In this document: positions 1,966 to 57,933 of the stretch, piece by piece | Layout: each line of letters starts with the position of its first letter | Numbering within the stretch: the stretch's first letter is position 1 | Sequence record: OQ349392.1 | Direction: 5' to 3' (one strand) | Origin: Escherichia phage KIT06 | DNA: 64,000 nt | Program-made: the position numbers and the translations under genes | The notes under the pieces: model-generated | Database searches by the model: none | The model's input: the letters and a program-made list of their open reading frames with translations, nothing else | What the model was told of the DNA's origin: nothing

Positions 1966-2019
1966 GTTTACAAGTCCCTCGTGTTGTGTTACAGTAGTCT
2001 TACTGACATAACATGAGGA
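1966..2019 (+). repeat. 54-bp perfect direct repeat, copy 1 (rnlA-alc intergenic); GTTTAC...CATGAGGA cassette
   Basis: gtttacaagtccctcgtgttgtgttacagtagtcttactgacataacatgagga, identical to 17061-17114; flanks differ on both sides. Confidence 0.85.
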
Positions 2020-12871: not shown

Positions 12872-12875
12872 ATTT

Positions 12876-12883: not shown

Positions 12884-12903
12884 GAATAAACACTAGAGAG
12901 GAT

Positions 12904-15000: not shown

Positions 15001-15003
15001 ATC

Positions 15004-17061
15004 ATGGAACTTATTACAGAATTATTTGACGGCGCTTCGGCGCCGGTTGTTAACTTAAATCCTAAGCATAAAATACCTCAAATTTTTGCTATTCAAGCCG
15101 GCGAAGAAAGTGTGCTTCCTGGATTTAGATTTTGTACATACACCTCTGGCGGTGATACAAATAAAAACGTTAAGCCAGGCGATAAAATGATGCATATCGT
15201 AATGATAGGTGTTAATGAGAAACTATCATTAGTTAAACTTAAAAACTTGGGTGGAAATCCAATTGGTGTCATTAATGCAGTTTTTGATACTGCTCTTCAA
15301 ACAATGAAACAGTATAAAATTGACGCATGCTTATTCCGCGTACTAAAGAGTAAAACAAATGGCGCTGCTCGTCAAATGCAAGTTATTGCCGACCGTTTAG
15401 TACGTACTAAAGGAGCAGGTCGATATGTTCTTTTAAAGGAAATCTGGGACTATGATAAGAAATATGCATATATTATGGTTTACCGTAAAAATGCCAATTT
15501 AGAAGACATTCCAGGTGTACCTCCTATTTCAACTGAGTTATTCACAAAAGTTGAATCAAAGGTTGGTGATGTTTATGTAGATGTTAAAACAGGTAATGCT
15601 GTTCCTAAAGCTGTTGCTGTTGCTGCTTCTATTGCTTTAGAAAATGATAAGCGTACGGATCAAGCTGTTATTCAGAAAACTAAAATTAGCCGTCGATTAG
15701 CAGCTCAGGCTCAATATTCTACTGTCGATGCTTCACTTCAGGGTGATAGCTTCGCTGCTAAGAAATATCAAGAGTTTGAATCTAAAGTTCCGGTATATAA
15801 AGCAGAAGGACCAATGAACTCTGGCGTTATTCAGGTTGGTTCAAACTTCAGTAAAGGAGCTATCGGTGGTATGAGAAGTGCTTCTCGTTTTAAATCTAGT
15901 GATTATGAACTAGAAAGCTTCAGAAATCATATTGCATTGGCTCATGCACGTTTACGTGATCCATCTATCAAGTTACAGAGCGATATAACATATCAAGGTT
16001 CTCAGGAATATTTAAAGAATAAAGAATTTTTTGATTATAAAACTGATAAAATTTTAAGCGATCTCGCTGACATTAATATTTCTAATAGCTTTGATGTTAT
16101 TAAGAAAATTATCAATGATTTAGTTAAAGGTTCTAAAGCCACGCCAGATGAAAAGGTAGCTATTGTTCAATTTGTCATGAATGGCATTTATAAATTGATT
16201 AATGAGTCTGCTTCTCAAGCGTATGAATATGCAAGTACTGAAGTACCCCCAAAAGGATTAACTCGGGCTGAGTCTGATGTAATTGAAGATTATTGCGCAG
16301 ATTCATATGTTGAAATGAACTCGTTCCTTTTAGGTAAACCAGATTCTACTCGTGAAGAATACATGGAACGAGCTATTAAACACATCGAGACAATGGATTC
16401 TGCCTTTGCCAAAGGATCAGTTCTTCCTCCAGGAACTACGCTTTATCGTGGACAAGAAGTTACTTTTAAAACTTTACGCCATAATATTGAAAATAAAATG
16501 TTCTATTTCAAGAACTTCGTATCAACATCGCTTAAACCAAATATCTTCGGTGAGTATGGTAAAAACTATATGGCCCTAGATGATTCTGGTGCAGTATTTT
16601 CTGGTGAAGGAGAAGGTTCAGTTGATGCTGAAGATTTAATGCATATGGGCAGTCACTCTGCTTACGCGAATGAAGATGCTGAAACTAGCGTGGGTATGGT
16701 AATTAAAGGGGCTGAGCGAATCAAAGTTATCGTTCCAGGTCATTTATCAGGATTTCCATCAGAAGCTGAAGTTATTCTACCGCGCGGAATTTTACTGAAG
16801 ATTAATAAAGTAAGTACGTACTTTATGAAAGAAACTGCTTATAACAAGTATCTAATAGAAGGTACAATCGTTCCTCCTTCTGAACAATTAGAGGAATCGG
16901 TATATGATGGCGAGCATCTAATGGAAACTGGCGAAGTTCGTCCAATGGCTGGATTTAATCAATTCCTTGTAGAAGAATCAAAAGAAGAGGAAAACGAAGT
17001 TTCTCAAATCTTGGCTTCTTTGGTTAACATCAACGGAATGTCTAAAAAGTTCAAAATGTAG
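15004..17061 (+). CDS. Second Alt-family ADP-ribosyltransferase paralog, 685 aa
   Basis: Same N-terminal MELITELFD, conserved first ~230 aa, diverged middle, conserved ART motifs (YRGQE, FVSTSLKP, PSEAEVILPRG) and C-terminal ESVYDGEHLMETGEV; starts 3 nt after the first alt stop. Confidence 0.85.
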   Translation: MELITELFDGASAPVVNLNPKHKIPQIFAIQAGEESVLPGFRFCTYTSGGDTNKNVKPGDKMMHIVMIGVNEKLSLVKLKNLGGNPIGVINAVFDTALQTMKQYKIDACLFRVLKSKTNGAARQMQVIADRLVRTKGAGRYVLLKEIWDYDKKYAYIMVYRKNANLEDIPGVPPISTELFTKVESKVGDVYVDVKTGNAVPKAVAVAASIALENDKRTDQAVIQKTKISRRLAAQAQYSTVDASLQGDSFAAKKYQEFESKVPVYKAEGPMNSGVIQVGSNFSKGAIGGMRSASRFKSSDYELESFRNHIALAHARLRDPSIKLQSDITYQGSQEYLKNKEFFDYKTDKILSDLADINISNSFDVIKKIINDLVKGSKATPDEKVAIVQFVMNGIYKLINESASQAYEYASTEVPPKGLTRAESDVIEDYCADSYVEMNSFLLGKPDSTREEYMERAIKHIETMDSAFAKGSVLPPGTTLYRGQEVTFKTLRHNIENKMFYFKNFVSTSLKPNIFGEYGKNYMALDDSGAVFSGEGEGSVDAEDLMHMGSHSAYANEDAETSVGMVIKGAERIKVIVPGHLSGFPSEAEVILPRGILLKINKVSTYFMKETAYNKYLIEGTIVPPSEQLEESVYDGEHLMETGEVRPMAGFNQFLVEESKEEENEVSQILASLVNINGMSKKFKM

Positions 17062-17114
17062 TTTACAAGTCCCTCGTGTTGTGTTACAGTAGTCTTACTG
17101 ACATAACATGAGGA
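17061..17114 (+). repeat. 54-bp perfect direct repeat, copy 2 (after alt paralog, before 96-aa ORF)
   Basis: Identical to 1966-2019; first base is the last base of the upstream TAG stop; ends in GAGGA 7 nt before the ATG at 17122. Confidence 0.85.
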
Positions 17115-17121
17115 ACACAAA

Positions 17122-17412: not shown

Positions 17413-17418
17413 AAACAT

Positions 17419-17436
17419 GGGGACCGAAAGGTCCCC
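17419..17436. terminator. Bidirectional hairpin GGGGACC-GAAA-GGTCCCC between convergent 96-aa ORF and gene 54
   Basis: 7-bp GC stem with GAAA tetraloop between two convergent stops. Confidence 0.55.
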
Positions 17437-17440
17437 GTTG

Positions 17441-19500: not shown

Positions 19501-19508
19501 ATTATTCC

Positions 19509-21811: not shown

Positions 21812-22931
21812 TTTTAACCTTAACTGGGTCTATTGTTTCCAGTTTCGTTGCATTAGTGAACATATATAGATGAGTTACTGAATTATTATTGGATAATTCA
21901 TGGATGACTTCATCAACGTAAAATTCTGTTTTAAATTGGTTTTTACTATCATTAAAAATAATTTTAACGCCAGGTGTCAAGTTAAAATTACCGACAGTGG
22001 AACATTTAGCATAGCCGTCATATTGCGCCATAGTTTGAAGACGAATAGCTTCTTCATATCCATTCCTATAAGTCATTTCAGAATAAGCACCTGACCTTGA
22101 CACTACAATAGAGTTTTCTCCCTTTCCTGTAGTAATCATTGGCAATGAAGAATCTAAAAATGAATGCGCGTAGATAGTAGCGTTTTTCATTGGGTCGCGT
22201 TTGTGAGGATTCGATTTAGTCAACCAAACGAAATCATATGCTAATGGATATTTTAATTCTTGGATGAATTGACCTATTAAAGATGGCTCACCGACAATCA
22301 TTGGATACGGTTCTTGATTTATCATCATATCATAGTCCATCATGTTAACTCCCATGATGTCTTGCCACACAAATACAAATTTGTCACTTCCTACAGCTAG
22401 AGCAACTTCTCTAACATACGACAAATAGTTTTCAAATGTGCTAGTCCATGGAATATCAGGAACATAAGCATTTATAGCATTTATTGCTGGAGTTAATAAC
22501 GTGCGATCTTGATAAATGACGCCAAGCATTTCCTTTATAGATTCACCTGCATCAGGGAAAAACGGTCTGCCAAATTTAAGATTTTCTATAGAATGAATAG
22601 TTCCCAATTCAATAGCAATGATGTTATCACCCTTTGAATCTACTGACACGGAAAAATGCTTACATCCATAAATTCGTGTTTTAACATTATTAATATCGTT
22701 TGCATTAGCTACAGAAATCTGAATTATTTCATTTCCATCCATTTTTGTATGGATATTTTTAGAATCATAAAACTGCAGCATTCCTTCATTTCGACCATAA
22801 AGAGAATCCCGCATAGTTAATGTGGTAATAGTAGCAGCTAATTCAACAAATCTATTATTACTCCAAGCGTCGTAGCTATCAAATAATTTAACGCTGAGAT
22901 TTGGATATCCTGGGCGTTGCAACATACTCAT
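21756..22931 (-). CDS. 27: Baseplate hub subunit gp27
   Basis: 391-aa [20 protein letters not shown]...; synteny and length as T4 gp27. Confidence 0.9.
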
Positions 22932-23680
22932 TATTGTTTATCCTTCTCAATCAGTTTTAATACGAATCCGCGCTCGGCAGGAATCATTTTCATTATTGAA
23001 TTTAAGCTATAATTACTTTTTACGAGTGTGTGATTAATTTGATAAAAAGTAAATATTTCATCTGGGTTAACTAATAGCTTAAATACATCTACTATATCAG
23101 TGTATTTTTTTACATACTTATTACAACACGACATATGCAATGTTAAATTAATAGGATTCATTGCATCGAGAATTTTTTCTAATGTTTCTATCTCGATTGC
23201 ATCAACAAGTTCTATTTGACTTGATTCGCTAATTTCCTTCCAATCATACCATGTTTCATCTACTTGAACAGAATGAATATTTTCAGTAATCATCTTTGCT
23301 TTATTTTCATAAAACTCAGAAGGAAACTTTAATTTAATTTTAACATTAGCTACATCAAAAACAGGTTCCTTTAATTCTTTTTGATATATTTCAAATGGAA
23401 CTGTCTTTTCTTTTTTACATTTTGGACATACAAATGTGACCGGTACTTTAGTTTTACCTATTGACCCTACAAATACCTGCAAAAATATAAATGGTTGCCA
23501 AGTCTTCGGATAGTCTCCAAAATAATCGGCAATTAAATCAGCAATTATTTCTTTTTGTTCTTGTGGTGACCGATGTTCTATATCGTTTCGAACTAACAAA
23601 AAATCTCGATAATCTTCTACCGTAAATGGTTTAAAACGATGAACACCATCTGGTAATTTACAACGAATAATGTTTGCCAT
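22931..23680 (-). CDS. 51: Baseplate hub assembly catalyst gp51
   Basis: 249-aa ORF with CxxC pairs; first gene after divergent late promoter. Confidence 0.85.
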
Positions 23681-23697
23681 AGATGCTCCTTTTATTC

Positions 23698-23709
23698 TAT
23701 TTATAAATA
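23698..23709. promoter_or_regulatory. Overlapping divergent late promoters (TATAAATA on both strands) between gene 51 (-) and gene 26 (+)
   Basis: tctaTTTATAAATAtga: minus-strand TATAAATA at 23698-23705, plus-strand TATAAATA at 23702-23709. Confidence 0.6.
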
Positions 23710-23730
23710 TGATAAATAAAGGAGCTAAAT

Positions 23731-24357
23731 ATGTATGAATACAAATTTGATGTGAGAGTTGGTTCTAAAATAATCAACTGTCGCGCATTTACTCTTAAAG
23801 AATATCTAGAACTTATTACTGCTAAAAAGAACGGTTCAGTAGAAGAGATCGTTAAAAAGCTAATCAAAGAATGCACAAATGCAAAAGATTTAAACCGCCA
23901 AGAATCAGAACTACTATTGATTCATTTATGGGCACATTCTCTTGGAGAAGTTAATCACGAAAACTCCTGGAAGTGCACCTGCGGAACTGAAATACCAACC
24001 CATATAAATCTATTACATACACAAATAGATGCACCAGAAGACCTCTGGTATACACTGGGTGACATTAAAATTAAGTTCCATTACCCTAAAATTTTTGATG
24101 ATAAAAATATAGCCCACATGATAGTATCATGTATAGAAACGATTCATGCTAACGGTGAAAGCATTCCAATTGAAGACTTGAATGAAAAAGAGTTGGAAGA
24201 TTTATATTCTATCATCACAGAGTCAGATATTGTAGCTATAAAAGATATGCTTTTAAAGCCTACTGTTTATTTGGCTGTTCCAATTAAATGTCCAGAGTGT
24301 GGAAAATCTCACGCTCATGTAATAAGAGGACTCAAAGAATTCTTTGAGCTATTGTAA
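23731..24357 (+). CDS. 26: Baseplate hub subunit gp26
   Basis: 208-aa ORF; late promoter TATAAATA about 22 bp upstream; synteny. Confidence 0.85.
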
Positions 24358-24755
24358 TGGCAAATATTAATAAGCTTTATTCTGACATTGACCCAGAAAT
24401 GAAAATGGATTGGGACAAAGACGTTTCCAGATCTCTTGGATTAAGGTCAATTAAAAATAGTCTTTTAGGAATTATTACAACCAGGAAAGGGTCAAGGCCA
24501 TTTGACCCGGAATTTGGATGTGATTTATCTGACCAGCTTTTTGAGAATATGACTCCTCTTACTGCTGATACTGTTGAGCGTAACATTGAAAGCGCAGTAA
24601 GAAACTACGAGCCACGTATTGATAAATTAGCAGTTAATGTAATACCAGTTTATGATGATTATACTCTGATAGTAGAAATACGCTTTTCAGTCATCGATAA
24701 CCCTGATGATATTGAGCAGATAAAACTACAACTGGCTTCCAGTAACAGAGTATAA
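24357..24755 (+). CDS. 25: Baseplate wedge subunit gp25 (lysozyme-fold, 132 aa)
   Basis: 132-aa ORF; synteny; ATGG/TAATG coupling to gene 26. Confidence 0.9.
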   Translation: MANINKLYSDIDPEMKMDWDKDVSRSLGLRSIKNSLLGIITTRKGSRPFDPEFGCDLSDQLFENMTPLTADTVERNIESAVRNYEPRIDKLAVNVIPVYDDYTLIVEIRFSVIDNPDDIEQIKLQLASSNRV

Positions 24756-24782
24756 TGCTTCACGTATAAACGTGGTATAATG
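24753..24782 (+). promoter_or_regulatory. uvsY middle promoter (MotA box taaTGCTTcA plus TATAAT -10); corresponds to the remembered T4 oriF(uvsY) replication-origin region
   Basis: TGCTT at 24756-24760 and TATAAT at 24776-24781, about 40 nt upstream of the uvsY ATG. Confidence 0.6.
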
Positions 24783-24821
24783 AATCTAAGTCCATCCAAT
24801 AACAATTGAATAGAGAACAAT

Positions 24822-25235
24822 ATGAAATTAGAAGATCTTCAAGAAGAATTGAAGAAAGATGTGTTTATAGATTCGACTAAATTACAGTATGAAGCAGCTA
24901 ATAATGTGATGTTATATAGTAAATGGCTTAATAAGCATTCAAGTATTAAAAAGGAAATGCTTAGAATTGAAGCACAGAAAAAAGTTGCTCTTAAAGCTAA
25001 ATTAGACTACTACTCGGGACGAGGAGATGGTGATGAATTTAGTATGGATCGTTATGAAAAATCAGAAATGAAGACAGTTCTATCAGCTGATAAGGATGTT
25101 TTAAAAGTTGATACTTCATTACAATATTGGGGAATTTTATTAGATTTCTGTAGCGGAGCTCTTGATGCTATTAAATCACGCGGATTTGCTATTAAGCATA
25201 TTCAAGACATGCGAGCATTTGAGGCTGGAAAATAA
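24822..25235 (+). CDS. uvsY: Recombination mediator UvsY, 137 aa
   Basis: 137-aa ORF downstream of classic MotA-box middle promoter; synteny with 25 and uvsW. Confidence 0.9.
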   Translation: MKLEDLQEELKKDVFIDSTKLQYEAANNVMLYSKWLNKHSSIKKEMLRIEAQKKVALKAKLDYYSGRGDGDEFSMDRYEKSEMKTVLSADKDVLKVDTSLQYWGILLDFCSGALDAIKSRGFAIKHIQDMRAFEAGK

Positions 25236-25459
25236 TGAGATATAGCATTGATGATGCTTTTAATTATGAAGAAGAATTTGAAACGGAAATTCAATTCTTA
25301 ATGAAAAAGTATAATCTCAAGCGTCAGGATATTCGTATCCTGGCCGACCACCCATGCGGTGAAGATGTCCTTTATATTAAAGGAAAATTTGCCGGATATC
25401 TTGATGAATATTTTTATTCTAAAGATATGGGCATTGATATGCATATGAGAGTTATATAA
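25235..25459 (+). CDS. Hypothetical protein (uvsY.-1 position), 74 aa
   Basis: ORF track; coupled to uvsY stop. Confidence 0.6.
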   Translation: MRYSIDDAFNYEEEFETEIQFLMKKYNLKRQDIRILADHPCGEDVLYIKGKFAGYLDEYFYSKDMGIDMHMRVI

Positions 25460-25462
25460 ATA
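25455..25462 (+). promoter_or_regulatory. TATAAATA late promoter upstream of the 55-aa Cys-rich ORF
   Basis: Exact motif overlapping the upstream stop codon, 26 nt before ATG 25488. Confidence 0.45.
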
Positions 25463-25487
25463 GATATATAATTTAGAGGAGACAATC

Positions 25488-25655
25488 ATGTCAGATAAGA
25501 TTTGTGTTGTCTGTAAAACTCCAATCGATTCTGCATTGGTTGTTGAAACAGACAAAGGTCCTGTGCATCCTGGGCCTTGTTATAATTACATTAAAGAACT
25601 ACCAGTTTCAGAAAGTTCGGAAGAACAATTAAATGAAACACAACTTTTGCTATAG
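25488..25655 (+). CDS. Small Cys-rich hypothetical protein (uvsY.-2 position), 55 aa
   Basis: ATG at 25488 after AGAGGA SD, open to TAG 25653-25655; contains CVVC...GPCYNY (possible zinc ribbon); followed by terminator hairpin. Below ORF-track size cutoff. Confidence 0.5.
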   Translation: MSDKICVVCKTPIDSALVVETDKGPVHPGPCYNYIKELPVSESSEEQLNETQLLL

Positions 25656-25678
25656 TGTGACCTTTAGTCTATAGTTTT

Positions 25679-25712
25679 GGCCCTTCCTTTTTGGTTGGGC
25701 CTTTTTTAATTT
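25679..25712 (+). terminator. Intrinsic terminator: GGCCC...GGGCC hairpin plus TTTTTTAATTT at end of uvsY operon
   Basis: 5-bp GC stem, 13-nt loop, 6-T run. Confidence 0.55.
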
Positions 25713-25941
25713 AAAAGCTTTCTTCTACTTCATCGTCTGAATCTTCTAATTCAGCTCTTTTTCCTGCCAAAGCATCTCTCACAGAGATGTCATCAGTATC
25801 TTTTAATTCAGTTTCTTTAACTCTTTTCTTGTAATAAGCTTCAAGTTCTTCTAGACCTTCTAATGTTTGACAAGAGGCAATTTTACCCATAAATTCATCA
25901 ATAGAAGCTTCATAAAGAAATTGTTTAAATTCTAGTAACAT
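25711..25941 (-). CDS. UvsW.1 small helicase-associated protein, about 76 aa
   Basis: ORF track 25711..25953 starts at TTG; ATG at 25941 with GGAG SD; sits immediately downstream of uvsW. Confidence 0.65.
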   Translation of the reverse strand: MLLEFKQFLYEASIDEFMGKIASCQTLEGLEELEAYYKKRVKETELKDTDDISVRDALAGKRAELEDSDDEVEESF

Positions 25942-25966
25942 CTTTTTCTCCAAAGGGCCGGAGCCC

Positions 25967-27478
25967 TTATAAATTAACTGTTTTCATTACGTAATTAAAT
26001 TTTTCATCTGCGTAGCGCTGAATACGATCAATGCCGTGTTTTAAAAGATAGTTCAAATGAACGTATTTCTTTTTCGTATTAGCAGATTTTGGTCTAACGC
26101 CCGCGTCATCTATAAGATCCCAGACCGTTGCGATTGTTTTAGAACCATGCTTACGTAATACGCGACCTATTGTTTGCAATACAATAATTTTAGATTTAAC
26201 ACCGTGTGCTAAAACAACGTGATGCAGATTTTTAACTGAAATACCGGTAGAAAATACACCATAACTAGCTACTATAATTATTCCTTTACCGTTTTCAGCT
26301 AAGGTTTTCATTACGTTGCGTGTTTCGGTATCAACTTCCCCTGATACGTAATAAACTTTATCGTATTCATTTTTAATTAAATCGAAAATAGCTTTACCGT
26401 GCGATACGTGTTTAAACATGACAAAAGCGTTTTCATCTTTTTGCGCAAGTTTAATAGCTAATTTAGCGATCCATTTATTTCTTTTACTGAGCCCAGTAAT
26501 AATTTTTATTTCTTCTTGGTAAGTTTTTCCCTTTAATTTAGTAGTGAACTCATCGGGATAGCGAAGAAAAATACTATTAATTTTTAACTCAGTTACTTGT
26601 CCATCTTCCATTAATTTAGAAGTCGTTACTGGCTTAAATATTTCACCAAACATTCCAACATACTGCATGATATTAGCTTTGCCATCACGTAATGAACCAG
26701 ACAAACCAAATTTAAACATACAGTTATTTAAACCTGATATGATAGATGAAATACTTTTTCCTGTAGCAAGATGGCATTCATCATTCATCATCATTCCAAA
26801 CTGTGAGAACCATTCTTTTGGTTGTTTTACTACAGTTTGCCATGTACCAACAACGACTGGTGCATCATTTTTATATTTATCATCTTTTGATGCTCCACCA
26901 CCGATTTTCTTTATCATTGCATGACTGAATAAACGATAGTCAACAAAGTCATCAGCCATCTGAGTTGTCAGAGCAGTTGTTGGAACAATGATAAGAATTT
27001 TACCTTCATAATTTTCCAAATAATAACGTGCAAGCAAAGCTTGAATTAAAGATTTACCTGCGGATGTTGGAAGATTAAGAATTCTACGACGATTAACTAA
27101 TCCTTCGAACACTGCATCTTTTTGATACCAGTGTGGTTCAATTCTTTTATTTCCTGAATAGATTTCTAATTTAGAAAGCCATTCATCAAAATCTTTTCTT
27201 GATAATTCTTCTTTTTCGTTAATCTGTGGGTCAATCCAAGCTTTATAGCCAAAGTTATCGCAGAACTTTTTAATTTGCCCGACTAAGCCGAATGGAAGAA
27301 GGCGATTATAATCTAAAAGACGGATTCGTCCATCCCAGTGGCCATATTTGTACTTCGGATTAAAACGATACCCATCAGCTTCAAAGCTAAAGAAATCACG
27401 GAGTTCATGAAATGTACTTTCTTCACAATCAATTCTCACGTGACTAAAATCATAAAAATGTACTTTAATGTCAGTCAT
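25967..27478 (-). CDS. uvsW: UvsW SF2 DNA/RNA helicase, 503 aa
   Basis: Walker A LPTSAGKSLI, DECH box (MMNDECHLATG); length and synteny as T4 UvsW. Confidence 0.9.
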   Translation of the reverse strand: MTDIKVHFYDFSHVRIDCEESTFHELRDFFSFEADGYRFNPKYKYGHWDGRIRLLDYNRLLPFGLVGQIKKFCDNFGYKAWIDPQINEKEELSRKDFDEWLSKLEIYSGNKRIEPHWYQKDAVFEGLVNRRRILNLPTSAGKSLIQALLARYYLENYEGKILIIVPTTALTTQMADDFVDYRLFSHAMIKKIGGGASKDDKYKNDAPVVVGTWQTVVKQPKEWFSQFGMMMNDECHLATGKSISSIISGLNNCMFKFGLSGSLRDGKANIMQYVGMFGEIFKPVTTSKLMEDGQVTELKINSIFLRYPDEFTTKLKGKTYQEEIKIITGLSKRNKWIAKLAIKLAQKDENAFVMFKHVSHGKAIFDLIKNEYDKVYYVSGEVDTETRNVMKTLAENGKGIIIVASYGVFSTGISVKNLHHVVLAHGVKSKIIVLQTIGRVLRKHGSKTIATVWDLIDDAGVRPKSANTKKKYVHLNYLLKHGIDRIQRYADEKFNYVMKTVNL

Positions 27479-27507
27479 GTCTAAATACCATGTAATAAAT
27501 ATATCTA

Positions 27508-27515
27508 TATTTATA
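27508..27515 (-). promoter_or_regulatory. Late promoter TATAAATA (minus strand) for uvsW
   Basis: Plus strand reads TATTTATA about 30 nt upstream of the uvsW start. Confidence 0.5.
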
Positions 27516-27528
27516 CTGAGGAAATATT

Positions 27529-28209
27529 ATGATAGATAAAGATTATATTGCAGAGCTGAAGGCTCTTGATGATAATAAAGAAGCTAAGGCTAAATTAGCT
27601 GAATATGCTGAACAGTTTGGTATAAAGGTCAAAAAGAATAAATCTTTTGATAATATCGTTAATGATATTGAAGAAGCCCTCCAGAAGCTCGCTAGTGAAC
27701 CTATGCCAGAGACTGATGGGTTATCTATTAAAGACTTAATCAATGCTGCTGATGCTGCAGAGGGATTAAAATATGACGATGAAGAAGTCAATCCAGAGGC
27801 AGCACTTCTGATTGATTCTCCGGTTAAATCTGATATTAAAATTGAAGTAGTCGAAACGGATAAAATTCCTGAAAATACCGATGTTTTGATTGAAGATACT
27901 CCTTTTGTTGAAGAAAAATTCGAACAGGCTGTAGCTGAGATTATTGAATCTGAAAAGCCGTCTGTATTTACTCTTCCGGAAAACTTTAGTCCGAATCTTC
28001 AGCTGATTGGAAAAAATCCAGGATTCTGCACTGTTCCTTGGTGGATTTACCAGTGGATTGCTGAAACTCCGGATTGGAAATCTCACCCAACTAGTTTTGA
28101 ACACGCGTCGGCACATCAAACTTTATTTAGCTTAATTTATTACATTAATCGCGACGGATCAGTTCTAATTCGTGAAACACGCAATTCTTCTTTCGTAACA
28201 TTAAAATAA
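27529..28209 (+). CDS. inh: Inh-like protein (inhibitor of prohead protease), 226 aa
   Basis: 226-aa acidic ORF directly upstream of hoc, as in T4; identity by synteny and length. Confidence 0.75.
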   Translation: MIDKDYIAELKALDDNKEAKAKLAEYAEQFGIKVKKNKSFDNIVNDIEEALQKLASEPMPETDGLSIKDLINAADAAEGLKYDDEEVNPEAALLIDSPVKSDIKIEVVETDKIPENTDVLIEDTPFVEEKFEQAVAEIIESEKPSVFTLPENFSPNLQLIGKNPGFCTVPWWIYQWIAETPDWKSHPTSFEHASAHQTLFSLIYYINRDGSVLIRETRNSSFVTLK

Positions 28210-28218
28210 GGATAACTT

Positions 28219-29070
28219 ATGGCTTTTACAGTTGATATAACTCCTAAAACACCTACTGGAGTTATAGATCAGACTCAGCAGTTTACTGCTACACCCAGTG
28301 GTGAAACTGGAGGTGGAACTATTACCTATGCTTGGACTGTAGACGATGTTCCACAGGATGGAGCTGAAGCAACTTTTAGTTATGTACTAAAAGGACCTGC
28401 CGGTCAAAAGACTATTAAAGTAGTTGCAACAAACACAGTTCCAGATACTGATGCTGAAACAGCAGAAGCTACTACAACTATCACGGTTCAAAATAAGACA
28501 CAGACAACTACCTTAGCTGTAACTCCTGATAGTCCTGCTGCTGGAGTGATTGGAACTCCTGTTGAATTTACTGCTGCTTTAGCTTCTCAACCATCAGGCG
28601 CATCTGCTACGTATCAATGGTATGTAGATGATTCACAAGTTGGTGGAGAAACTAACTCTACATTTAATTACACTCCTTCCACAAGCGGAGTTAAAACAAT
28701 TAAGTGTGTGGCTCAAGTAACCGCGACAGATTATGATGCAAAGGAAGTTACTTCGAATGAAGTATCACTGACTGTGACTGATAAAGTTGCTCCAGAACCA
28801 GAAGGTGAACTACCTTATGTTCATCCTCTTCCACATCGTACTTCAGCTTATATCTGGTGCGGTTGGTGGGTTATGGATGAAATCCAAAAAATGACTGAAG
28901 AAGGTAAAGATTGGAAAACTGAAGATCCAGATAGTAAATACTACCTGCATCGTTACACTCTTCAGAAGATGTTGAAAGACTATCCAGAAGTTGATGTTCA
29001 AGAATCACGTAATGGATACATCATTCATAAAACTGCTTTAGAAACTGGTATCATCTATACCTATCCATAA
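28219..29070 (+). CDS. hoc: Hoc outer capsid decoration protein, short form (two Ig-like repeats plus capsid-binding domain), 283 aa
   Basis: Two tandem Ig-like repeats (TPKTPTGVIDQTQQFTATPSG... and TQTTTLAVTPDSPAAGVIGTPVEFTAALAS...) followed by VAPEPEGELPYVHPLPHR...GIIYTYP capsid-binding tail as remembered for T4 Hoc. Confidence 0.85.
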   Translation: MAFTVDITPKTPTGVIDQTQQFTATPSGETGGGTITYAWTVDDVPQDGAEATFSYVLKGPAGQKTIKVVATNTVPDTDAETAEATTTITVQNKTQTTTLAVTPDSPAAGVIGTPVEFTAALASQPSGASATYQWYVDDSQVGGETNSTFNYTPSTSGVKTIKCVAQVTATDYDAKEVTSNEVSLTVTDKVAPEPEGELPYVHPLPHRTSAYIWCGWWVMDEIQKMTEEGKDWKTEDPDSKYYLHRYTLQKMLKDYPEVDVQESRNGYIIHKTALETGIIYTYP

Positions 29071-29074
29071 TCTA

Positions 29075-29100
29075 AGGGGCTTCGGCCCCTTTCTTCATTT
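29075..29100 (+). terminator. Terminator hairpin AGGGGC-TTCG-GCCCCT plus T-rich tail after hoc
   Basis: 6-bp GC stem, UUCG loop, followed by TTCTTCATTTT. Confidence 0.6.
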
Positions 29101-29158
29101 TGAAAGCACACAAAACACAATCAGAAAACGATGTATATAATGGCACCAACTCGATAAC

Positions 29159-29374
29159 ATGAGATTGATTATGAGAACTGAGGTTGTGGTGTTTACACTC
29201 CATGAGTCTGGAAAGTCATTCATTGAAATTGCTCGTGAATTGAACTTACAGGCAAAAGAAGTGGCTGTATTATGGGCTCGAGCTATGACTGCTAAGAATA
29301 AATTTGAGACTCGAGAAAAAGTTGTCTATAGAAAAAGACATATTAATAAAAAGGTGAAAAATGGAACAGTATGA
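29159..29374 (+). CDS. Hypothetical small protein with helix-turn-helix-like segment, 71 aa
   Basis: ORF track; segment GKSFIEIARELNLQAKEVAVLW resembles an HTH. Confidence 0.55.
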   Translation: MRLIMRTEVVVFTLHESGKSFIEIARELNLQAKEVAVLWARAMTAKNKFETREKVVYRKRHINKKVKNGTV

Positions 29375-29639
29375 TCTTTATGAAAATGAATCTTTTGCTA
29401 ATCAATTACGCGAAAAAGCGCTTAAAAGTAAACAGTTTAAACTAGAGTGTTTTATCAAAGATTTTTCGGAACTTGCTAATAAAGCAGCTGAGCAAGGTAA
29501 AACATATTTTAGTTATTATTGTACCGCTCGTGATAAATTGATTACTGAAGAAATTGGTGATTGGCTGAGAAAAGAAGGATTTAGCTTTAAAGTCAATAGT
29601 GACCAGCGTGATGGTGATTGGTTAGAAATTACATTTTGA
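29361..29639 (+). CDS. Hypothetical protein, 92 aa
   Basis: ORF track; overlaps upstream stop. Confidence 0.6.
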   Translation: MEQYDLYENESFANQLREKALKSKQFKLECFIKDFSELANKAAEQGKTYFSYYCTARDKLITEEIGDWLRKEGFSFKVNSDQRDGDWLEITF

Positions 29640-29648
29640 GGATTAATT

Positions 29649-30653
29649 ATGTTTAAAAAGTATAGCAGTCTTGAAAATCATTATAATTCTAAATTCATTG
29701 AAAAACTTTATAGTTTAGGATTGACTGGCGGCGAATGGGTAGCTCGTGAAAAGATTCATGGTACAAATTTCTCACTGATTATTGAGCGTGATAAAGCAAC
29801 TTGTGCTAAACGTACTGGACCGATTCTTCCTGCTGAAGATTTCTTTGGGTATGAAATTATTCTAAAGAATTACGCTGATTCCATTAAAGCAGTACAAGAT
29901 ATTATGGAAACTTCGGCAGTTGTATCTTATCAAGTCTTCGGCGAATTCGCTGGACCTGGCATTCAGAAGAATGTCGATTATGGTGATAAAGATTTTTATG
30001 TATTTGACATTATTGTTACTACAGAAAGTGGTGATGTGACTTATGTCGATGATTATATGATGGAATCATTCTGTAATACATTCAAATTTAAAATGGCTCC
30101 ACTTTTAGGTCGCGGTAAATTTGAAGAGCTTATTAAATTGCCAAATGATTTAGATTCTGTCGTCCAAGATTATAATTTTACAGTAGACCATGCCGGATTA
30201 GTTGATGCAAATAAATGCGTCTGGAATGCCGAAGCAAAAGGCGAAGTATTTACCGCTGAAGGTTATGTATTGAAACCTTGTTATCCTTCTTGGATGCCTA
30301 ATGGCAATCGTGTAGCTATTAAATGCAAGAACTCTAAATTTAGCGAAAAGAAAAAGTCTGATAAGCCTATTAAAGCTAAAGTTGAACTGTCAGAAGCTGA
30401 TAACAAGCTGATGGGAATTTTAGCTTGTTACGTTACACTGAACCGAGTAAATAACGTTATTTCTAAAATTGGCGAAATTGGTCCAAAAGATTTTGGAAAG
30501 GTGATGGGACTAACTGTTCAAGATATTTTGGAAGAAACTTCTCGTGAAGGTATTACTCTAACTCAAGCGGATAATCCTTCTTTAGTTAAAAAGGAATTAG
30601 TTAAAATGGTACAAGATGTACTTCGTCCGGCTTGGATTGAATTGGTAAGTTAA
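29649..30653 (+). CDS. rnlB: RNA ligase 2, 334 aa
   Basis: [21 protein letters not shown]... with ligase motif I KIHGTN; matches remembered T4 Rnl2. Confidence 0.95.
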
Positions 30654-30660
30654 ATAAAAA

Positions 30661-30687
30661 GGGACCTTTCGGTCCCTTTGTTTTATT
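30661..30687. terminator. Bidirectional terminator GGGACC-TTTC-GGTCCC between convergent rnlB and gene 24
   Basis: 6-bp stem followed by TTTGTTTTATT on plus strand and A/T-rich on minus. Confidence 0.6.
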
Positions 30688-31966
30688 CATCAACGATAAT
30701 TTTTGGTAGCTTAACACCTAATAAAACAGACAAATCTGAACGACCCGCCATTTTATCCATGTCTCCGCCATCAATTATTCTTGCTTCTTTTTCGTCTTTT
30801 GCTACAGTGTAAGGATTTGCAGATAAAGCATATCTAACCAATAAACCGATAGATGGCTGCAAACTTTCTGGATCAACTACAACTTTAAATGCACCTACAT
30901 GTTCAGGGTCATCTAAGTCAAGACCTTCTGTATACGGAGCATAGAAAATTGATCCGACAATTTCTTTTTCACCAATATTTTCTACTACACCAACGATTAC
31001 ATAATCTAATGGGCTGTTAGTATCGCAATAAAGCGGTAAACCATTAGCTAAGAACCCGTAGGCATTTTGTGAAAGATATTTATCATCTTCTGGTTTATGT
31101 TTTAACCAACCTGATGCAGCAAGAATCGCAGCGGCACGAGCTGAAGCAACACAGAACGTTGCTGTATAAGTTGATTCTTTTTGGATATGCGAAACCATTT
31201 CACATACCATTCGGTATAATGAACGACCGGCTTCAGGTGCAGATGCATAACTCAAATCAATGAATCCGGTATCAGTAATTCCTGTAACTTTATAGCGTTT
31301 TGACACTGTAATCAAAGACTGTAGAATATCTTTATTGATTTCATCCGCCATTTCAGTTGCAAGCAAATCTTCCAAGAAATTAGGAGCATCGAATCCATTT
31401 GCTTCTAAATCTTGTGCTAATTCAACTGTGATGCCAGTTTTAAGTTTACGAGATTTGACTGAAGTTTGCCATTTATTAATCTGGAATCTAGCATCAGCAA
31501 TTTCGCTATCAGAGCTTTCAAATTTGCTCGTTGACGCTGCATCAGAAAATAGACGAACCTTTAAAAGAACAATTGCAATCTGAAGAGCTAGTTCTAAATC
31601 GCTTTCTTCAATGGTAGCAAATGGTGTATCTTCTAATACTTTATAAACGATATTATTGTATTTGAATAAATCGCCTTTATTGAGAGTTAATTTAGACTCT
31701 TCTGTTAATTCTGTGATTTGTTCTCGGTCTACATATCCAGCTTCGCCAGCGTAAGTAGCACCAGTTTTAAATGTAAATTCATTATCTGGGTTAAGGTATT
31801 TGATACCATAAAAAGCAGCAACAGGTTGATTAGTTCTTTGCGTTGCTACAATGTCAGAATATATTAATTTAGTGGTAGCGCGAGTCAAAGCAACGAGATT
31901 TGGGCGACCGATTGAGTTGCTATTCGTTGTGGTTGATTCGCGCAGAAGTTCGTTGATTTTAGCCAT
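30683..31966 (-). CDS. 24: Head vertex protein gp24, 427 aa
   Basis: 427-aa paralog of major capsid protein; late promoter upstream; synteny. Confidence 0.9.
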   Translation of the reverse strand: MAKINELLRESTTTNSNSIGRPNLVALTRATTKLIYSDIVATQRTNQPVAAFYGIKYLNPDNEFTFKTGATYAGEAGYVDREQITELTEESKLTLNKGDLFKYNNIVYKVLEDTPFATIEESDLELALQIAIVLLKVRLFSDAASTSKFESSDSEIADARFQINKWQTSVKSRKLKTGITVELAQDLEANGFDAPNFLEDLLATEMADEINKDILQSLITVSKRYKVTGITDTGFIDLSYASAPEAGRSLYRMVCEMVSHIQKESTYTATFCVASARAAAILAASGWLKHKPEDDKYLSQNAYGFLANGLPLYCDTNSPLDYVIVGVVENIGEKEIVGSIFYAPYTEGLDLDDPEHVGAFKVVVDPESLQPSIGLLVRYALSANPYTVAKDEKEARIIDGGDMDKMAGRSDLSVLLGVKLPKIIVDE

Positions 31967-51731: not shown

Positions 51732-52736
51732 TTAAAATGTAAACAGAATATTGATTTCTTCTGTTTGATCCATTGCCATGATAATAGGTGGCCTATTTTC
51801 CATATAAATCATTTCGCCCGAATGCCTCATTAAATCTTCCGGATCATAATAATCCTTTTCAGCTTTAACGTTTGGGTCATTTGGATGAGCTTTAGCTTCA
51901 AGAGGATTCGTGATTATTGATATTTGTCTAAATCCTTTATTTCCTGGCAATGCAGCTTCAGGAAAATAAACTGAATCTAAATATGCTTTAAAACGGATAG
52001 TATTTGCCTTAACCCGATAAATTAATCCAAAATCGTCTTGTTGCCAAGTGAGATTATCTTCATATCCCCATCTAGTCGGGTCTTCTTTTAATTCCTCAGG
52101 CCAAGGAACCACGATATATTCATTCGTACATCTATTTATAGATACATCAGGCGGAATCTCAAATAGATATTCCCACACATACCCGTCTCCGGGTTCAATT
52201 GTTCCTTCAGCATCTCCTCGACCTTCAGGAGGAGTCATTGACCTAGCAGAAGGAGTCCATTTTCCACCTAACTTAAGGCATTCATCCTTATCAGTTAAAG
52301 ATGCTATTGAACACATTCCTGTGTCAGGAACATCTAAACAACGATATACTAACCAGCCTGCGCCTGATTCGGTAGCATTGTAAGGAGCTGAGTTACACAC
52401 TACAATATCATTAATTCTAAATGTGTATGGATCCGGATATCTAGTATCTCCCCAATCTCTGCGAGGAATAACTGCATCAAGCATTGATGGAAGAACTTTT
52501 ACTGTTCCCATCATATGAGTCCACATGTCAGTTACACCTAATACAGAATCGGTAGGATAAGGTGGGGCAAAGCCCACCTCATTTTCATTTGATGACCACG
52601 GTTCTGATCTTCCAAATGTGATAAAGATAGTGTTTTTATCCGGACCACTTCCAATTGAATTATAAAAATTCAACATTTTTTCTGTTCTAAATTTTGAAGT
52701 AACTATCGCACGATAGATAACACTTGAATCATTCAT
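51732..52736 (-). CDS. 8: Baseplate wedge protein gp8, 334 aa
   Basis: Length and synteny; followed by perfect palindromic terminator. Confidence 0.9.
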   Translation of the reverse strand: MNDSSVIYRAIVTSKFRTEKMLNFYNSIGSGPDKNTIFITFGRSEPWSSNENEVGFAPPYPTDSVLGVTDMWTHMMGTVKVLPSMLDAVIPRRDWGDTRYPDPYTFRINDIVVCNSAPYNATESGAGWLVYRCLDVPDTGMCSIASLTDKDECLKLGGKWTPSARSMTPPEGRGDAEGTIEPGDGYVWEYLFEIPPDVSINRCTNEYIVVPWPEELKEDPTRWGYEDNLTWQQDDFGLIYRVKANTIRFKAYLDSVYFPEAALPGNKGFRQISIITNPLEAKAHPNDPNVKAEKDYYDPEDLMRHSGEMIYMENRPPIIMAMDQTEEINILFTF

Positions 52737-53808
52737 CTATTTTAACCTGTGTTGGATTTTCAGGGTCTCTTGGATTTCCTATATCGTCTTTTAGACGTTT
52801 ATTAACTAAATCCCTAAATTGTGCAAATGTTGTTCCAGATGCATCAAATAAAGGACTCATTAATTTACGTCGTTCAGACGGCAATTGACCTTGAAATATT
52901 GAATTATTATTTTCAGCATTATAGTCATCAGGAAGAGGATATTTTACACCAGCCATTGGGCCAGGTTCATAAATTGCTTCGCCTGTTACCGAATCATGCT
53001 CAATTTCACCAGCTGGAGTCAATTTAGCTACTCTATCAGCATATTCAGTAGGCAATCCAGAATCCCATTTATAGTTTTTGTATTTATTAATTATAGTCTC
53101 TGTATGTTTAAGAGTTAAACCAACATTAATAAACATCGTTAAAAGAGTAATTGCTATAAATCCAAATCCTACTGGATGAACAAAACGAATAACGTCGGAT
53201 TTCCAGCGGGAAGAAGGCAAATTGGATTTAATTTTCATTACATAATATGATCGACTTCTATTAATATAGTCTATATTATTTTGAAGCAAATCCTTCCCTT
53301 TAACTCCACGAATAATTTCGCCTTCAAAACTAGGGAGTCTTTCTGCTTTAACTTCTTGACCGGCAATTAATCTTCCTAAAAGATTATGAATAGTTACAGT
53401 CCATTGCAATTTACCGTTAGAATAACTTCTTTCTATATAAGTAACATTACATCTTCCTGTGGCTGTATAAATCGTTTGTCCTACTAAGTCTTCAGTCAAA
53501 GAATCAGATTGAACGATTATATCATATTCAGTACCAGCCCCAGATTCAATTTCAATTTCAACCTCTTCATTATAAAGAACTTTAAAAAGAAATTTGTATG
53601 ATGCTTCAATTCCTTTAGTAGAATAAAAATCATAGCTACGTGATTCGAAAAATCTTGGTACCAGCCCCAGATTCAATTTCAATTTCAACCTCTTCATTAT
53701 AAAGAACTTTAAAAAGAAATTTGTATGATGCTTCAATTCCTTTAGTAGAATAAAAATCATAGCTACGTGATTCGAAAAATCTTGCAACAGCATCACGTTT
53801 GTCAGCAT
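52729..53808 (-). CDS. 7: Baseplate wedge protein gp7, C-terminal portion in the other frame (no independent start expected)
   Basis: 359-aa ORF whose residues 52 onward (RFFESRSYDFYSTKGIEASYKFLFKVLYNEEVEIEIESGAGTEYDIIVQ...) continue the gp7 sequence; first 51 residues are out-of-frame read-through of the duplicated unit. Confidence 0.8.
   Translation of the reverse strand: MLTNVMLLQDFSNHVAMIFILLKELKHHTNFFLKFFIMKRLKLKLNLGLVPRFFESRSYDFYSTKGIEASYKFLFKVLYNEEVEIEIESGAGTEYDIIVQSDSLTEDLVGQTIYTATGRCNVTYIERSYSNGKLQWTVTIHNLLGRLIAGQEVKAERLPSFEGEIIRGVKGKDLLQNNIDYINRSRSYYVMKIKSNLPSSRWKSDVIRFVHPVGFGFIAITLLTMFINVGLTLKHTETIINKYKNYKWDSGLPTEYADRVAKLTPAGEIEHDSVTGEAIYEPGPMAGVKYPLPDDYNAENNNSIFQGQLPSERRKLMSPLFDASGTTFAQFRDLVNKRLKDDIGNPRDPENPTQVKIDE
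53531..53784 (-). repeat. Perfect tandem duplication, 2 x 127 bp (53531-53657 and 53658-53784), inside gene 7
   Basis: Both units read base by base and found identical; 127 is not a multiple of 3, so the second unit shifts the gp7 frame. Confidence 0.9.
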
Positions 53809-55954
53809 TTAAATAAATGTTTCTTTTATATATCTCTGACCACAAATATTCCCATGCATGCTCTTCTCGTGGATATTTGTTACGAATTAAATTTCGTAAA
53901 TTGTTATATTGGGTTCCATATCCATCAGAAAGATATTGAATATATGCTTCGCAAAATGCCTCAAAATTCGAATCCTGTAACAAATAAGAATCAGGCATCA
54001 TTGTGCCAATCAATGGTCTTAAATCAGGGTCAGCTAATCCACGCTCTTCTTCAGGCGACCAAGGAGTTTCATGCTCTTGGTTTTGTAAAAATGCTTTTAA
54101 AAATACTTCAGTTGGCTTCCAAATAATTTCTACAGTGTCTCTAACACGATAGTTAAAATCATAGTAAGAAATTATTTCACCAGAAGCTTTATAGAAAAGC
54201 ATCCCAGATGCATATTTTTTAAATCCAGTGAATTTAACATTTGGCATTACTATAGTGCAATCGCCATCGTCCCAATATTCATGAACTAATCTATCTGGTG
54301 ATGTTTCCGGAATATTTTCTATAACTTTAGTGTATTTTAAATCAGCATAAACTACTACAACCCTATCAGAGTTGTTTATCCAACAACGTGTGTTAGATTT
54401 TTTAGACCAGTTAAAGAATGGTTCAGCGTAGTATTTCATCGGCTGAGGAGTAAAAGTTTCCCAATCAGACTTTTCATCTGCTATAAATGCCATCATATGA
54501 TAATGCTTATCAGCTAGCCATTCACGAGGAAATTCATATTTAACGGCACCGATTAACTGATATTTTGCTGCAGTTTCAGGGTCATTAACAACATTATCAC
54601 TTAAAAATTTAAAATTACTCGATGATAGAGAAACTAATTTACCATCAGTTGACATATTCGCATACCCTGGTTGAATACGTCTTCTTTCTTCTTCAGTGTT
54701 GCCAAAAACTCTTTTCCATGTTTTTGTGTCATGATTTAAAACATATATTCCTTTATCAGCAGAATCAATTATTTTTGATGTTCTAGGATTAGCATTTAAT
54801 GTTTCAACTTCACCAATAATAAGAGCAAAAACTTTATCACCGACAGAATCCATTTTATAGCATACTGCTTTAGGATTTCCGGTTATAGTCATAGTATCAG
54901 GTTCAAAAAGTCTTTCCGAATATGTCGGAGATAATGGATCAGAATCTATAGGTGCATTACTCGTTTTTATGTATCTAACTTTGTCTCTGGCGACAACGTA
55001 AATGTAATCATCGGTGCAAGTAATAGCTTCTGCAATGCGATATACATTAGCTGGTAAAGTCGCGTAAGTGGCAAAAATTTCTACATCAAATCCTAGATGT
55101 AATTGGTCACCGAGTTTAGCGAATGTTATATCCTGCGAACTAAATCTGACATCATCAGCTGACCATCTAACATCAGTCGATTTGCGGCCATAGAAAATCT
55201 TGTCGTATCCTAGAACGTATGTTGTGTTCGCAGATTGGTAATATACTGTCTTAGATAAAGGATATCCTACGCGGTCATTGAAGAGCTTTACAGCTTTCCA
55301 GGTTTGTCCTTTATCATTAGATACTTTAACTACAGGTTGATAACGCTCAAAAAGATATAGAATCCCTTCTGATTCCATCAAATAAACTCGGTTAATATCC
55401 TTACATACTTGCTGAATAGAACCTTGTATTTCATGATACTCATTTTCACCAATAATAAAATTACTTATTGATGAAACATCAACATATGATGGGCTGAATT
55501 GAAACGATTCATTCATCAATGCAGCCATTATAGTGTCATTGTTAAAATTGACATAATCAGAATTATTAAGAGTAAATTTTTCCTGAATGAATTTATTAGC
55601 TAATTGCATTTCAATCATGTTTTGAAATGTATAAGCATTTGTAGCAAAAGTTTCAAACTCTTCGGTATAAATCCAATCAGACTGCTCAAAATCTTGTGCA
55701 GCTGTAGCTACTCTAATAACGTATGATGTCAATGGGTCAGCATCATCAAAAAAGAAGCTGTTATTTGCAGTATATCCTAAGTTAATCCATCTGTATTGAT
55801 TACTCGGGAGATTTTCCCCCGAGTTTGTTTTTGTCTCAGCGATTTCTACAAAATAGTAGAAATTAGCACCAACGTCATCCCAGCGTACTTGCACCTGATT
55901 TGCGGATAACTTGGAAATTCTGAGACTAGTGACTGAAGGTGCTTTTACTGTCAT
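53636..55954 (-). CDS. 7: Baseplate wedge protein gp7, N-terminal portion truncated by frameshift (765 native residues plus 7 out-of-frame residues)
   Basis: 772-aa ORF ending ...ESGAGTKIFRIT; the last in-frame residues are the second copy of a duplicated 42-aa peptide; removing 127 bp restores one 1032-codon ORF, the remembered length of T4 gp7. Confidence 0.85.
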   Translation of the reverse strand: MTVKAPSVTSLRISKLSANQVQVRWDDVGANFYYFVEIAETKTNSGENLPSNQYRWINLGYTANNSFFFDDADPLTSYVIRVATAAQDFEQSDWIYTEEFETFATNAYTFQNMIEMQLANKFIQEKFTLNNSDYVNFNNDTIMAALMNESFQFSPSYVDVSSISNFIIGENEYHEIQGSIQQVCKDINRVYLMESEGILYLFERYQPVVKVSNDKGQTWKAVKLFNDRVGYPLSKTVYYQSANTTYVLGYDKIFYGRKSTDVRWSADDVRFSSQDITFAKLGDQLHLGFDVEIFATYATLPANVYRIAEAITCTDDYIYVVARDKVRYIKTSNAPIDSDPLSPTYSERLFEPDTMTITGNPKAVCYKMDSVGDKVFALIIGEVETLNANPRTSKIIDSADKGIYVLNHDTKTWKRVFGNTEEERRRIQPGYANMSTDGKLVSLSSSNFKFLSDNVVNDPETAAKYQLIGAVKYEFPREWLADKHYHMMAFIADEKSDWETFTPQPMKYYAEPFFNWSKKSNTRCWINNSDRVVVVYADLKYTKVIENIPETSPDRLVHEYWDDGDCTIVMPNVKFTGFKKYASGMLFYKASGEIISYYDFNYRVRDTVEIIWKPTEVFLKAFLQNQEHETPWSPEEERGLADPDLRPLIGTMMPDSYLLQDSNFEAFCEAYIQYLSDGYGTQYNNLRNLIRNKYPREEHAWEYLWSEIYKRNIYLNADKRDAVARFFESRSYDFYSTKGIEASYKFLFKVLYNEEVEIEIESGAGTKIFRIT

Positions 55955-57933
55955 TGTGATATAGGCTCCAAATCGATAGTTAAGTATTGTGGACGTAAGT
56001 CATTTTCAAATACAATCAGTGAACCATCGCGAGTAAAGATAACATCATCGGTTGGGTCAGAATATAATTCAATAGTCTGAACTTCAAATTTTTCAGATGT
56101 TAAATTAATTTTAGCGATATTCCAATAAATCACATCAGCTGGATAATTTATTTCACCGATAACATAGTATTTGTCGCGTCCATCAGAATTTGCTAATTTG
56201 TTAAAATCGTTGCCTGTATACGGCTGAATGTTTTCATTTTCTGTAACATCGCCAGAAGCAAATGGACCAATAATAACTTTACCAATTCCTTTAGAATCTC
56301 GGTCTGTTGATACTATGCGAACGTCATATAATACATCTTCTTCTAAACCAGTATCAGGATTTACAACCTTTCGTCCAGAATTAAATGAAAACGTATTAGA
56401 TTCCATAGAACGATCTTTTATTTGATTATTGTATTTAATACCTGCTTCAGGCGTTTTATAGAAGTTTTGTACTTCACGAACAATTTGAATTGTCGCTGAT
56501 GAACCAATGATAGAATGATCTGCATCATCTACATATGTCAACATCTTAGATTTAGCGAAAGATGAGTTAAAAATTTCTACGTCTTCGGTATAATAACGAT
56601 CAATTTTATCAATTATTTGACCTTCAAGCCACTGTTCGGATTCTTGCAGCTTATTTAAAGCATATGTGACTTTTAAATTAGTCTTAATAAAAAGATAATT
56701 AGGAGAAATAATTGATGGCGTAATAGGAGCTAAATTATAGTCTTTGAGATAATTTTTAATATCTTCGCGTTGTACAGTAGTTAAATACAACCCTGATTTA
56801 GGTTTAGCAGCAATAAATGCATAACCAGGTTTAGTAGAATCAGTGAAAGTCTGAACTGCTTGAATAATAGAACCAAATCTCTCTGAAACGAATGTATCAT
56901 AGTCAGTCGCAGTTACGCAGCGTTGCTGGGTTTCACGTTTAATAGTACCCAATTCGCGAATACGTTCAATATCTTCTGGGTCACCGCCGCCATCTGCCCC
57001 AACAAAATCTGGGTCATCGTTTGGATTTTCATTAATGTTGATGACAGTTATATTTGTTAATGTATCTGCGTATGAAAATCCGACTGCGCCATTCGCATCG
57101 GCACCGTTAGTACTGATGTACTCAATAACAATCGTAGAGTTCTGGGTAGGTTTAAGACCTCCAATGTAATTAGCGGTCAATGCTCCTTCTGCCGCATTAA
57201 CAGAAATCTCACCTTCACCAAAATAAAATTCAGTATTTCCATCAATAGTTTCACGCATGTAGTAAATTGTTGATGTAGAACCAGCATGAACCATTGACTT
57301 TCTTGTCCAGTTAATCCATTCTGCTCCATCAACATACAGCTTAACTTGGTTTCTATCTATATTTTTGTCATAAATGATAATAGGTGTTAATTTATCATAA
57401 ATGATTTCAGTTCTTACTATACGTCCCTGGGCTAATTTTAAACGCGGAAAATATTGGTTATTTTTATCGCGAATAGCAATAACATCTTCGGTAGAGACAA
57501 AGTTATAAGGATTAACAGAAGTATCCTTTGCATATGCTAAAAAGCGAGTACCACGAGGAATAGTAATGTAATTTCTATTCAATGCGTCTGTACAAGTTAG
57601 CATAATTTCAGTTTGAGCAGCTGATTTTGAAGTAGGTAAATATCCATTATCTTGTGCAGCTTGAACTACTGAACTACGTAAGTTAGCAGTACGCATAAAG
57701 CTTTCATACACGGCAGCATTACCAAACTGCTGAATGTATAATGTGTTATAAGCCAAAAGGTCGCACAGAACGTTTAATCTTGAGCCTTCAAAATCATAAT
57801 CCAAAAATTCATTTTGACCATTAAGCCATTCAATGAGGTTTTGTTTTATTTCAGCAAATGTACCCCCGACGAATATCTCGGGAATAGCATTTGCTGTTCT
57901 TGTTAATTGATAATTTACAGGGGTATTTGCCAT
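55951..57933 (-). CDS. 6: Baseplate wedge protein gp6, 660 aa
   Basis: Length and synteny; start overlaps gene 7 stop region. Confidence 0.9.
   Translation of the reverse strand: MANTPVNYQLTRTANAIPEIFVGGTFAEIKQNLIEWLNGQNEFLDYDFEGSRLNVLCDLLAYNTLYIQQFGNAAVYESFMRTANLRSSVVQAAQDNGYLPTSKSAAQTEIMLTCTDALNRNYITIPRGTRFLAYAKDTSVNPYNFVSTEDVIAIRDKNNQYFPRLKLAQGRIVRTEIIYDKLTPIIIYDKNIDRNQVKLYVDGAEWINWTRKSMVHAGSTSTIYYMRETIDGNTEFYFGEGEISVNAAEGALTANYIGGLKPTQNSTIVIEYISTNGADANGAVGFSYADTLTNITVININENPNDDPDFVGADGGGDPEDIERIRELGTIKRETQQRCVTATDYDTFVSERFGSIIQAVQTFTDSTKPGYAFIAAKPKSGLYLTTVQREDIKNYLKDYNLAPITPSIISPNYLFIKTNLKVTYALNKLQESEQWLEGQIIDKIDRYYTEDVEIFNSSFAKSKMLTYVDDADHSIIGSSATIQIVREVQNFYKTPEAGIKYNNQIKDRSMESNTFSFNSGRKVVNPDTGLEEDVLYDVRIVSTDRDSKGIGKVIIGPFASGDVTENENIQPYTGNDFNKLANSDGRDKYYVIGEINYPADVIYWNIAKINLTSEKFEVQTIELYSDPTDDVIFTRDGSLIVFENDLRPQYLTIDLEPISQ

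Follow-up and report, generated by a model that had tools for sequence, protein, structure and literature searches.

A perfect 127-bp tandem duplication that splits gene 7 of a T4-like phage sequence is very probably an untrimmed assembly overlap

How can a T4-type phage sequence have its gene for the baseplate wedge protein gp7 divided by two perfect copies of the same 127 nt? The duplication lies in a 64-kb stretch of DNA (the window), and as written it leaves gene 7 as two overlapping open reading frames (ORFs). We asked whether the second copy belongs to the phage or to the way in which its sequence was put together.

The repeat and its effect on gene 7

The initial annotation had described identical, head-to-tail units of 127 nt at 53531-53657 and 53658-53784, and Tandem Repeats Finder returned the same coordinates (period 127, 2.0 copies, 100% matches, score 508). 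The array is exactly 2.0 copies long with no partial third copy of the unit, and the 64-kb window holds no second repeat of this kind. A perfect tandem copy of 127 nt cannot have arisen by chance. The base 5' of the first unit is an A where the unit ends in G, and the base 3' of the second is a C where the unit starts with G. Neither flanking base matches the corresponding end of the unit, so the boundaries have zero microhomology. The features of the locus are as follows.

53531..53657, 127-bp unit, copy 1, read second in minus-strand order; codes for gp7 residues 724-765 in the repaired gene
53658..53784, 127-bp unit, copy 2, read first in minus-strand order; 100% identical to copy 1
53646..53669, novel junction ...AAATCTTG/GTACCAGC..., the only sequence not seen in single-copy relatives
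52729..55954, minus strand, whole gene 7 for baseplate wedge protein gp7; 1032 codons after removal of one unit
53636..55954, minus strand, truncated gp7 ORF of 772 aa; residues 1-766 and 6 out-of-frame residues
52729..53808, minus strand, second ORF of 359 aa; about 50 out-of-frame residues, then native gp7 residues 724-1032

With its flanks the junction reads ...CGAAAAATCTTG/GTACCAGCCCC..., and the two single-copy boundaries read ...ATATTCA/GTACCAG... and ...AAATCTTG/CAACAGC.... The junction creates a GGTACC site (KpnI/Acc65I) at 53652-53663 that is absent from the single-copy relatives. A cloning origin, which such a site might suggest, had no other support, and we take the site to be a coincidence.

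Since the additional 127 bases are 3n+1, they give gene 7 an apparent frameshift. The unit begins at nucleotide 2171 of the gene, so that residues 724-765 are doubled and 267 native codons lie downstream. The 772-aa ORF ends ...ESGAGTKIFRIT before its stop, and the 42-aa peptide RFFESRSYDFYSTKGIEASYKFLFKVLYNEEVEIEIESGAGT is present in both ORFs. The frame arithmetic of the initial annotation, its stop at 53636 and its shared 42-aa peptide were all correct. Deleting one unit yields, as it had also claimed, a single ORF of 3099 nt and 1032 codons with no internal stop.

The gene is a T4-type gp7. Its repaired product matches the Pfam families PF21428, PF21427 and PF21456, with the Gp7 helical domain at residues 643-689, domain V at 766-861 and domain VI at 920-1012. 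The 359-aa ORF aligns with the solved structure of T4 gp7, at residues 721-1032 of chain 5hx2_A (E = 1.9e-207), a chain found also in 5iv5 and 5iv7. The gene lies between gp6 (55951-57933, 660 aa) and gp8 (51732-52736, 334 aa). Domains, structural match and gp6-gp7-gp8 synteny together confirm the name that the gene had first been given. Like T4 gp7 (PDB 5hx2, 5iv5, 5iv7), the repaired product has 1032 aa and the same domains in the same gene order. Unlike it, the gene in the window is split into ORFs of 772 and 359 aa by the extra unit, and it is a single ORF only after one unit is removed. The doubled residues 724-765 lie past the helical core-bundle domain and ahead of domain V. This helical domain is kept in the 772-aa ORF, which is without domains V and VI; those two are in the 359-aa ORF.

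One copy of gp7 is present in each baseplate wedge, and wedge assembly is obligatory and strictly ordered (PMC3004832). A phage that can be propagated is therefore not expected to carry a gp7 frameshift. The gp7 duplication is the only defect in the window, and the other structural-gene ORFs match the counterparts in relatives in length.

Relatives and an independent assembly of the same phage

The window is from a T4-like (Tequatrovirus) genome and shares about 97.6-98.5% identity with its closest deposited relatives. In a phage collection no record reached 99% identity over most of the query, and the complete E. coli genomes had no match. Queries across the site gave some 500-670 T4-like matches in the phage collection, and the records listed among them all span exactly 127 bases fewer than the query: a 3301-base query is matched over 3174 bases, a 501-base query over 374. 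A 70-base probe with the junction at its centre matched in that collection only as two pieces, at opposite ends of one unit. We also retrieved 43 loci through exact-protein look-ups. The duplication site is covered by 29 of them, and all 29 have one unit; where gene 7 is present in full, the gene call gives a product of 1032 or 1033 aa. Comparison with other T4-like phages, proposed earlier as a check of the single-copy junction, thus found that junction in every locus covering the site.

The junction itself was sought more widely. A junction 36-mer had zero matches in IMG/VR, and a junction 26-mer had zero in the JGI metagenomes and in the GTDB genomes. The exact 127-mer unit likewise had zero matches in IMG/VR, and no contig with the unit at both ends was found there. 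The exact 772-aa product is not on record in public gene calls, which is weak evidence: the 503-aa uvsW of the window (25967-27478, minus strand) was also returned as not on record, yet it is called on identical DNA (locus L033, 3804-5315), and negatives in exact-product look-ups are weak for that reason.

We made the next comparison at the assembly level, with Logan, in which public sequencing runs have been assembled independently with a k=31 de Bruijn graph. In run SRR17680687, all 15,101 bp of contig SRR17680687_5 (locus L041) equal window positions 1990-17090 with no mismatch. The second contig, SRR17680687_2, is 47,354 bp long. Its locus L033 equals 17085-31281 with zero mismatches or gaps, and its locus L016 equals 38994-60929 except that bases 7146-7272 align to both units, which means that L016 has one unit. 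The gp7 gene call on L016 gives 1032 aa, the same protein as in the repaired window. About 51 kb of the run is identical to the window, which differs solely by its additional 127 bp. After L016, the locus nearest to the window is 98.4% identical, so SRR17680687 contains the same phage and not a mere relative. This run may also be the read set behind the window; no paper mentioning it was found. A second candidate for the same phage, locus L034 from run DRR849140, has the same 698-aa Alt-like protein but proved, at 97.3% identity, to be a different strain.

One of the two 127-bp copies is surplus and is missing from every other assembly. One unit in data from the same phage had been named at the outset as the result that would mark the second unit as an artefact; it was found at the level of an independent assembly (SRR17680687).

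A k=31 assembly might be suspected of merging repeats. We used an exact 54-nt repeat at another place in the window as an internal control.

1966..2019, plus strand, 54-nt exact repeat, copy 1; locus L041 starts at 1990, 30 nt inside
17061..17114, plus strand, 54-nt exact repeat, copy 2; contig SRR17680687_5 ends at 17090 and contig SRR17680687_2 at 17085

The Logan contig ends at 1990, 17090 and 17085 fall exactly 30 nt (k-1) inside the repeat copies, and a simulated k=31 graph of the window reproduces these ends. Because the contigs break at the 54-nt repeat, the k=31 assembly does not silently collapse repeats. In the same simulation the duplication as written adds four branch nodes, at 53531-53560, 53628-53657, 53658-53687 and 53755-53784. 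The 47-kb contig SRR17680687_2 passes the duplication site unbroken, so either the SRR17680687 reads have no junction k-mers or these are so rare that graph cleaning removed them. For this read set, a fixed duplication is excluded.

The 54-nt direct repeat is real, as shown by the breaks in the independent k=31 assembly, which fall exactly 30 nt into each copy. The copies lie 15,095 nt from one another, and each has a sigma-70-like promoter (TTTACA, 17 nt, TACAGT, with an upstream TG). A GAGGA follows each promoter just before an ORF, at 2024-2530 (Alc family) and 17122-17412 (DUF5498). The repeat looks like a duplicated early promoter and leader.

Two other features of the window were recorded. 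The head outer capsid decoration protein Hoc (28219-29070, plus strand) has 283 aa here and 376 aa in loci L031 and L032, one Ig-like (PKD) domain being absent in frame. As the Logan contig from this phage has that form too, the short Hoc is a genuine strain feature. Two adjacent Alt-like ADP-ribosyltransferase genes are encoded at 12904-15000 and 15004-17061 (plus strand). The matching loci have the Pfam domains Tevenvirinae_ADPRT and ADPrib_exo_Tox, and the arrangement is common to the retrieved relatives.

Origin of the extra unit

The largest k-mer used by SPAdes is 127, and T4 genomes are circularly permuted. The phage belongs to the T4-like group by its 98% identity to Tequatrovirus records and by gp16/gp17 terminase genes in synteny, and this membership suggests a genome that would assemble as an apparent circle. 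From such a circularly permuted, terminally redundant genome a de Bruijn assembler would give one contig with an arbitrary cut, here in gene 7. The first k bases of the contig would recur at its other end, which for SPAdes at its largest k-mer means exactly 127 bases. We infer that the overlap was left untrimmed when the contig was then circularised, rotated or given a new start on the reverse complement, or when the window was taken across the record ends. Closing or reopening an untrimmed contig would leave two 127-bp copies head to tail inside the sequence, at an arbitrary place. SPAdes at k=127 would then presumably be the assembler, and 53531 and 53784 the ends of the original contig.

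Artificial 127-bp end overlaps that have to be trimmed are described for SPAdes phage contigs (PMC5923482, PMC9331655, PMC8104045). In one of these cases 127-bp terminal repeats were cut from a circularly permuted coliphage, and the genome was then reverse-complemented and reopened (PMC8104045). The Phage Annotation Guide lists terminal repeats in mid-sequence and frameshift assembly errors among the common faults of deposits (PMC8785237). Similar to the SPAdes direct terminal repeats, the repeat in gene 7 is exactly 127 bp long, has identical copies, sits at an arbitrary gene position with no biological boundary signature and occurs in a headful-packaging, circularly permuted type of phage. 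The described copies differ in being at the contig ends; here they are internal and head to tail, and the additional joining step is one that we infer.

The repeat thus has a unit length equal to an assembler k-mer, perfect copies and arbitrary boundaries that lack microhomology, and its junction has no counterpart in the independent assembly of this genome. The extra 127-bp unit is very probably an untrimmed SPAdes k-mer overlap between contig ends that has been made internal, and not a part of the phage DNA. With greater confidence still we regard it as an artefact in one form or the other, SPAdes overlap or different joining error. The exact length of 127 bp could in principle be a coincidence. 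Of the origins first proposed for the repeat, an assembly artefact is the one upheld by these results, and a real duplication in part of the population, then favoured, is opposed by the one-unit independent assembly, by the equality of 127 with a SPAdes k and by the lack of microhomology.

A joining error of another kind (two overlapping contigs joined by hand, a fault in scaffolding or polishing, or a window spanning record ends that share a 127-bp terminal overlap) would leave the same signature of perfect copies, arbitrary boundaries and no support in an independent assembly, and terminal repeats in mid-sequence are a known deposit problem (PMC8785237). We consider it very unlikely as a separate explanation. 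It differs from the SPAdes route only in who or what did the joining, and the length of 127 bp still points to a SPAdes k=127 overlap.

Real T4 duplications are typically much larger, covering whole genes. The window could report a genuine 127-bp duplication carried by part of the population, a lethal gp7 allele kept by co-infection with wild type and reverting by recombination, but we judge this very unlikely. T4 readily forms tandem segmental duplications (PMC9391042), and those of rII, the Hp17 amplifications and the dmd-tifA amplification (PMC9391042) are, like the repeat in gene 7, direct head-to-tail repeats in a T4-type genome, unstable through homologous recombination between the units. 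Their mapped boundaries are at microhomologies of 6-10 bp, and one copy of the microhomology is left between the repeats (PMC9391042). A real T4 array would for that reason be slightly longer than two copies, and the array here is exactly 2.0, without one shared base at either boundary. The known T4 cases are whole-gene amplifications, selected for the benefit of additional gene copies, and not lethal intragenic frameshifts; the repeat in the window is 127 bp long, has no microhomology, destroys an essential gene and is missing in the independent assembly. As read from the sequence, the duplication would frameshift gp7 and remove domains V and VI, which does not fit an allele that is propagated or confers a benefit.

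A rare junction could be lost from the Logan contig in graph cleaning, and a real variant present in a small minority of genomes could have been hidden in this way. A minority variant, however, should not become the consensus. If real duplication lengths are spread over hundreds of values, the chance of one equal to the SPAdes maximum k-mer is estimated at <1%. The junction is also in no other assembly or collection (phage collection, IMG/VR, JGI metagenomes, GTDB genomes).

A version that dispenses with microhomology, in which the duplication is real in part of the stock and divides gp7 in the linker preceding domain V, with two overlapping fragments that form a working wedge together or a lethal allele passed on through co-infection, seems to us highly improbable. 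The break near a domain boundary (domain V starts at residue 766) may be convenient for a functional split, but it would be equally expected by chance, and we take it to be coincidental.

We give hardly any credence to a fixed real duplication, with gp7 made as two co-assembling polypeptides (residues 1-766 with the tail, and a restart giving 724-1032) or with a defective mutant grown on a complementing host. In its favour, the break falls close to a domain boundary, after the helical domain (643-689) and before domain V (766-861), and the second frame has at 53676-53688, directly ahead of its native part, an AAGAGG with TTG codons behind it. Against it, a fixed duplication would have broken the contig of the identical phage, whose independent assembly has one unit; no ATG of the second ORF has a Shine-Dalgarno sequence and its candidate starts are TTG only; the 772-aa product is in no public gene call (a weak look-up negative); gp7 is one protein of 1032 or 1033 aa in all relatives examined; and the wedge is assembled in a strict order that depends on gp7 (PMC3004832). 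For the one-unit independent assembly and the lack of a start codon with a credible ribosome-binding site ahead of the C-terminal part, we rejected the split gene as the main explanation.

Meaning for the record and for the phage

An untrimmed overlap, the reading we prefer, matters chiefly for quality control. The sequence is 127 bp too long, and an essential structural gene appears in it as two fragments. Left uncorrected, such a record would be a source of error in automated annotation, in pangenome and pseudogene counts, and in the safety or completeness screens applied to therapeutic phages. As a general rule, a perfect tandem duplicate with the length of an assembler k-mer should be presumed an untrimmed contig overlap until reads contradict it. 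The lengths to suspect are 127, 99, 77 or 55 for SPAdes and 141 for MEGAHIT, and the rule is strongest where the boundaries have no microhomology and in circular or circularly permuted genomes. As biology, the duplication in gene 7 is of no consequence: the real phage almost certainly has one unit and an ordinary gp7 of 1032 aa.
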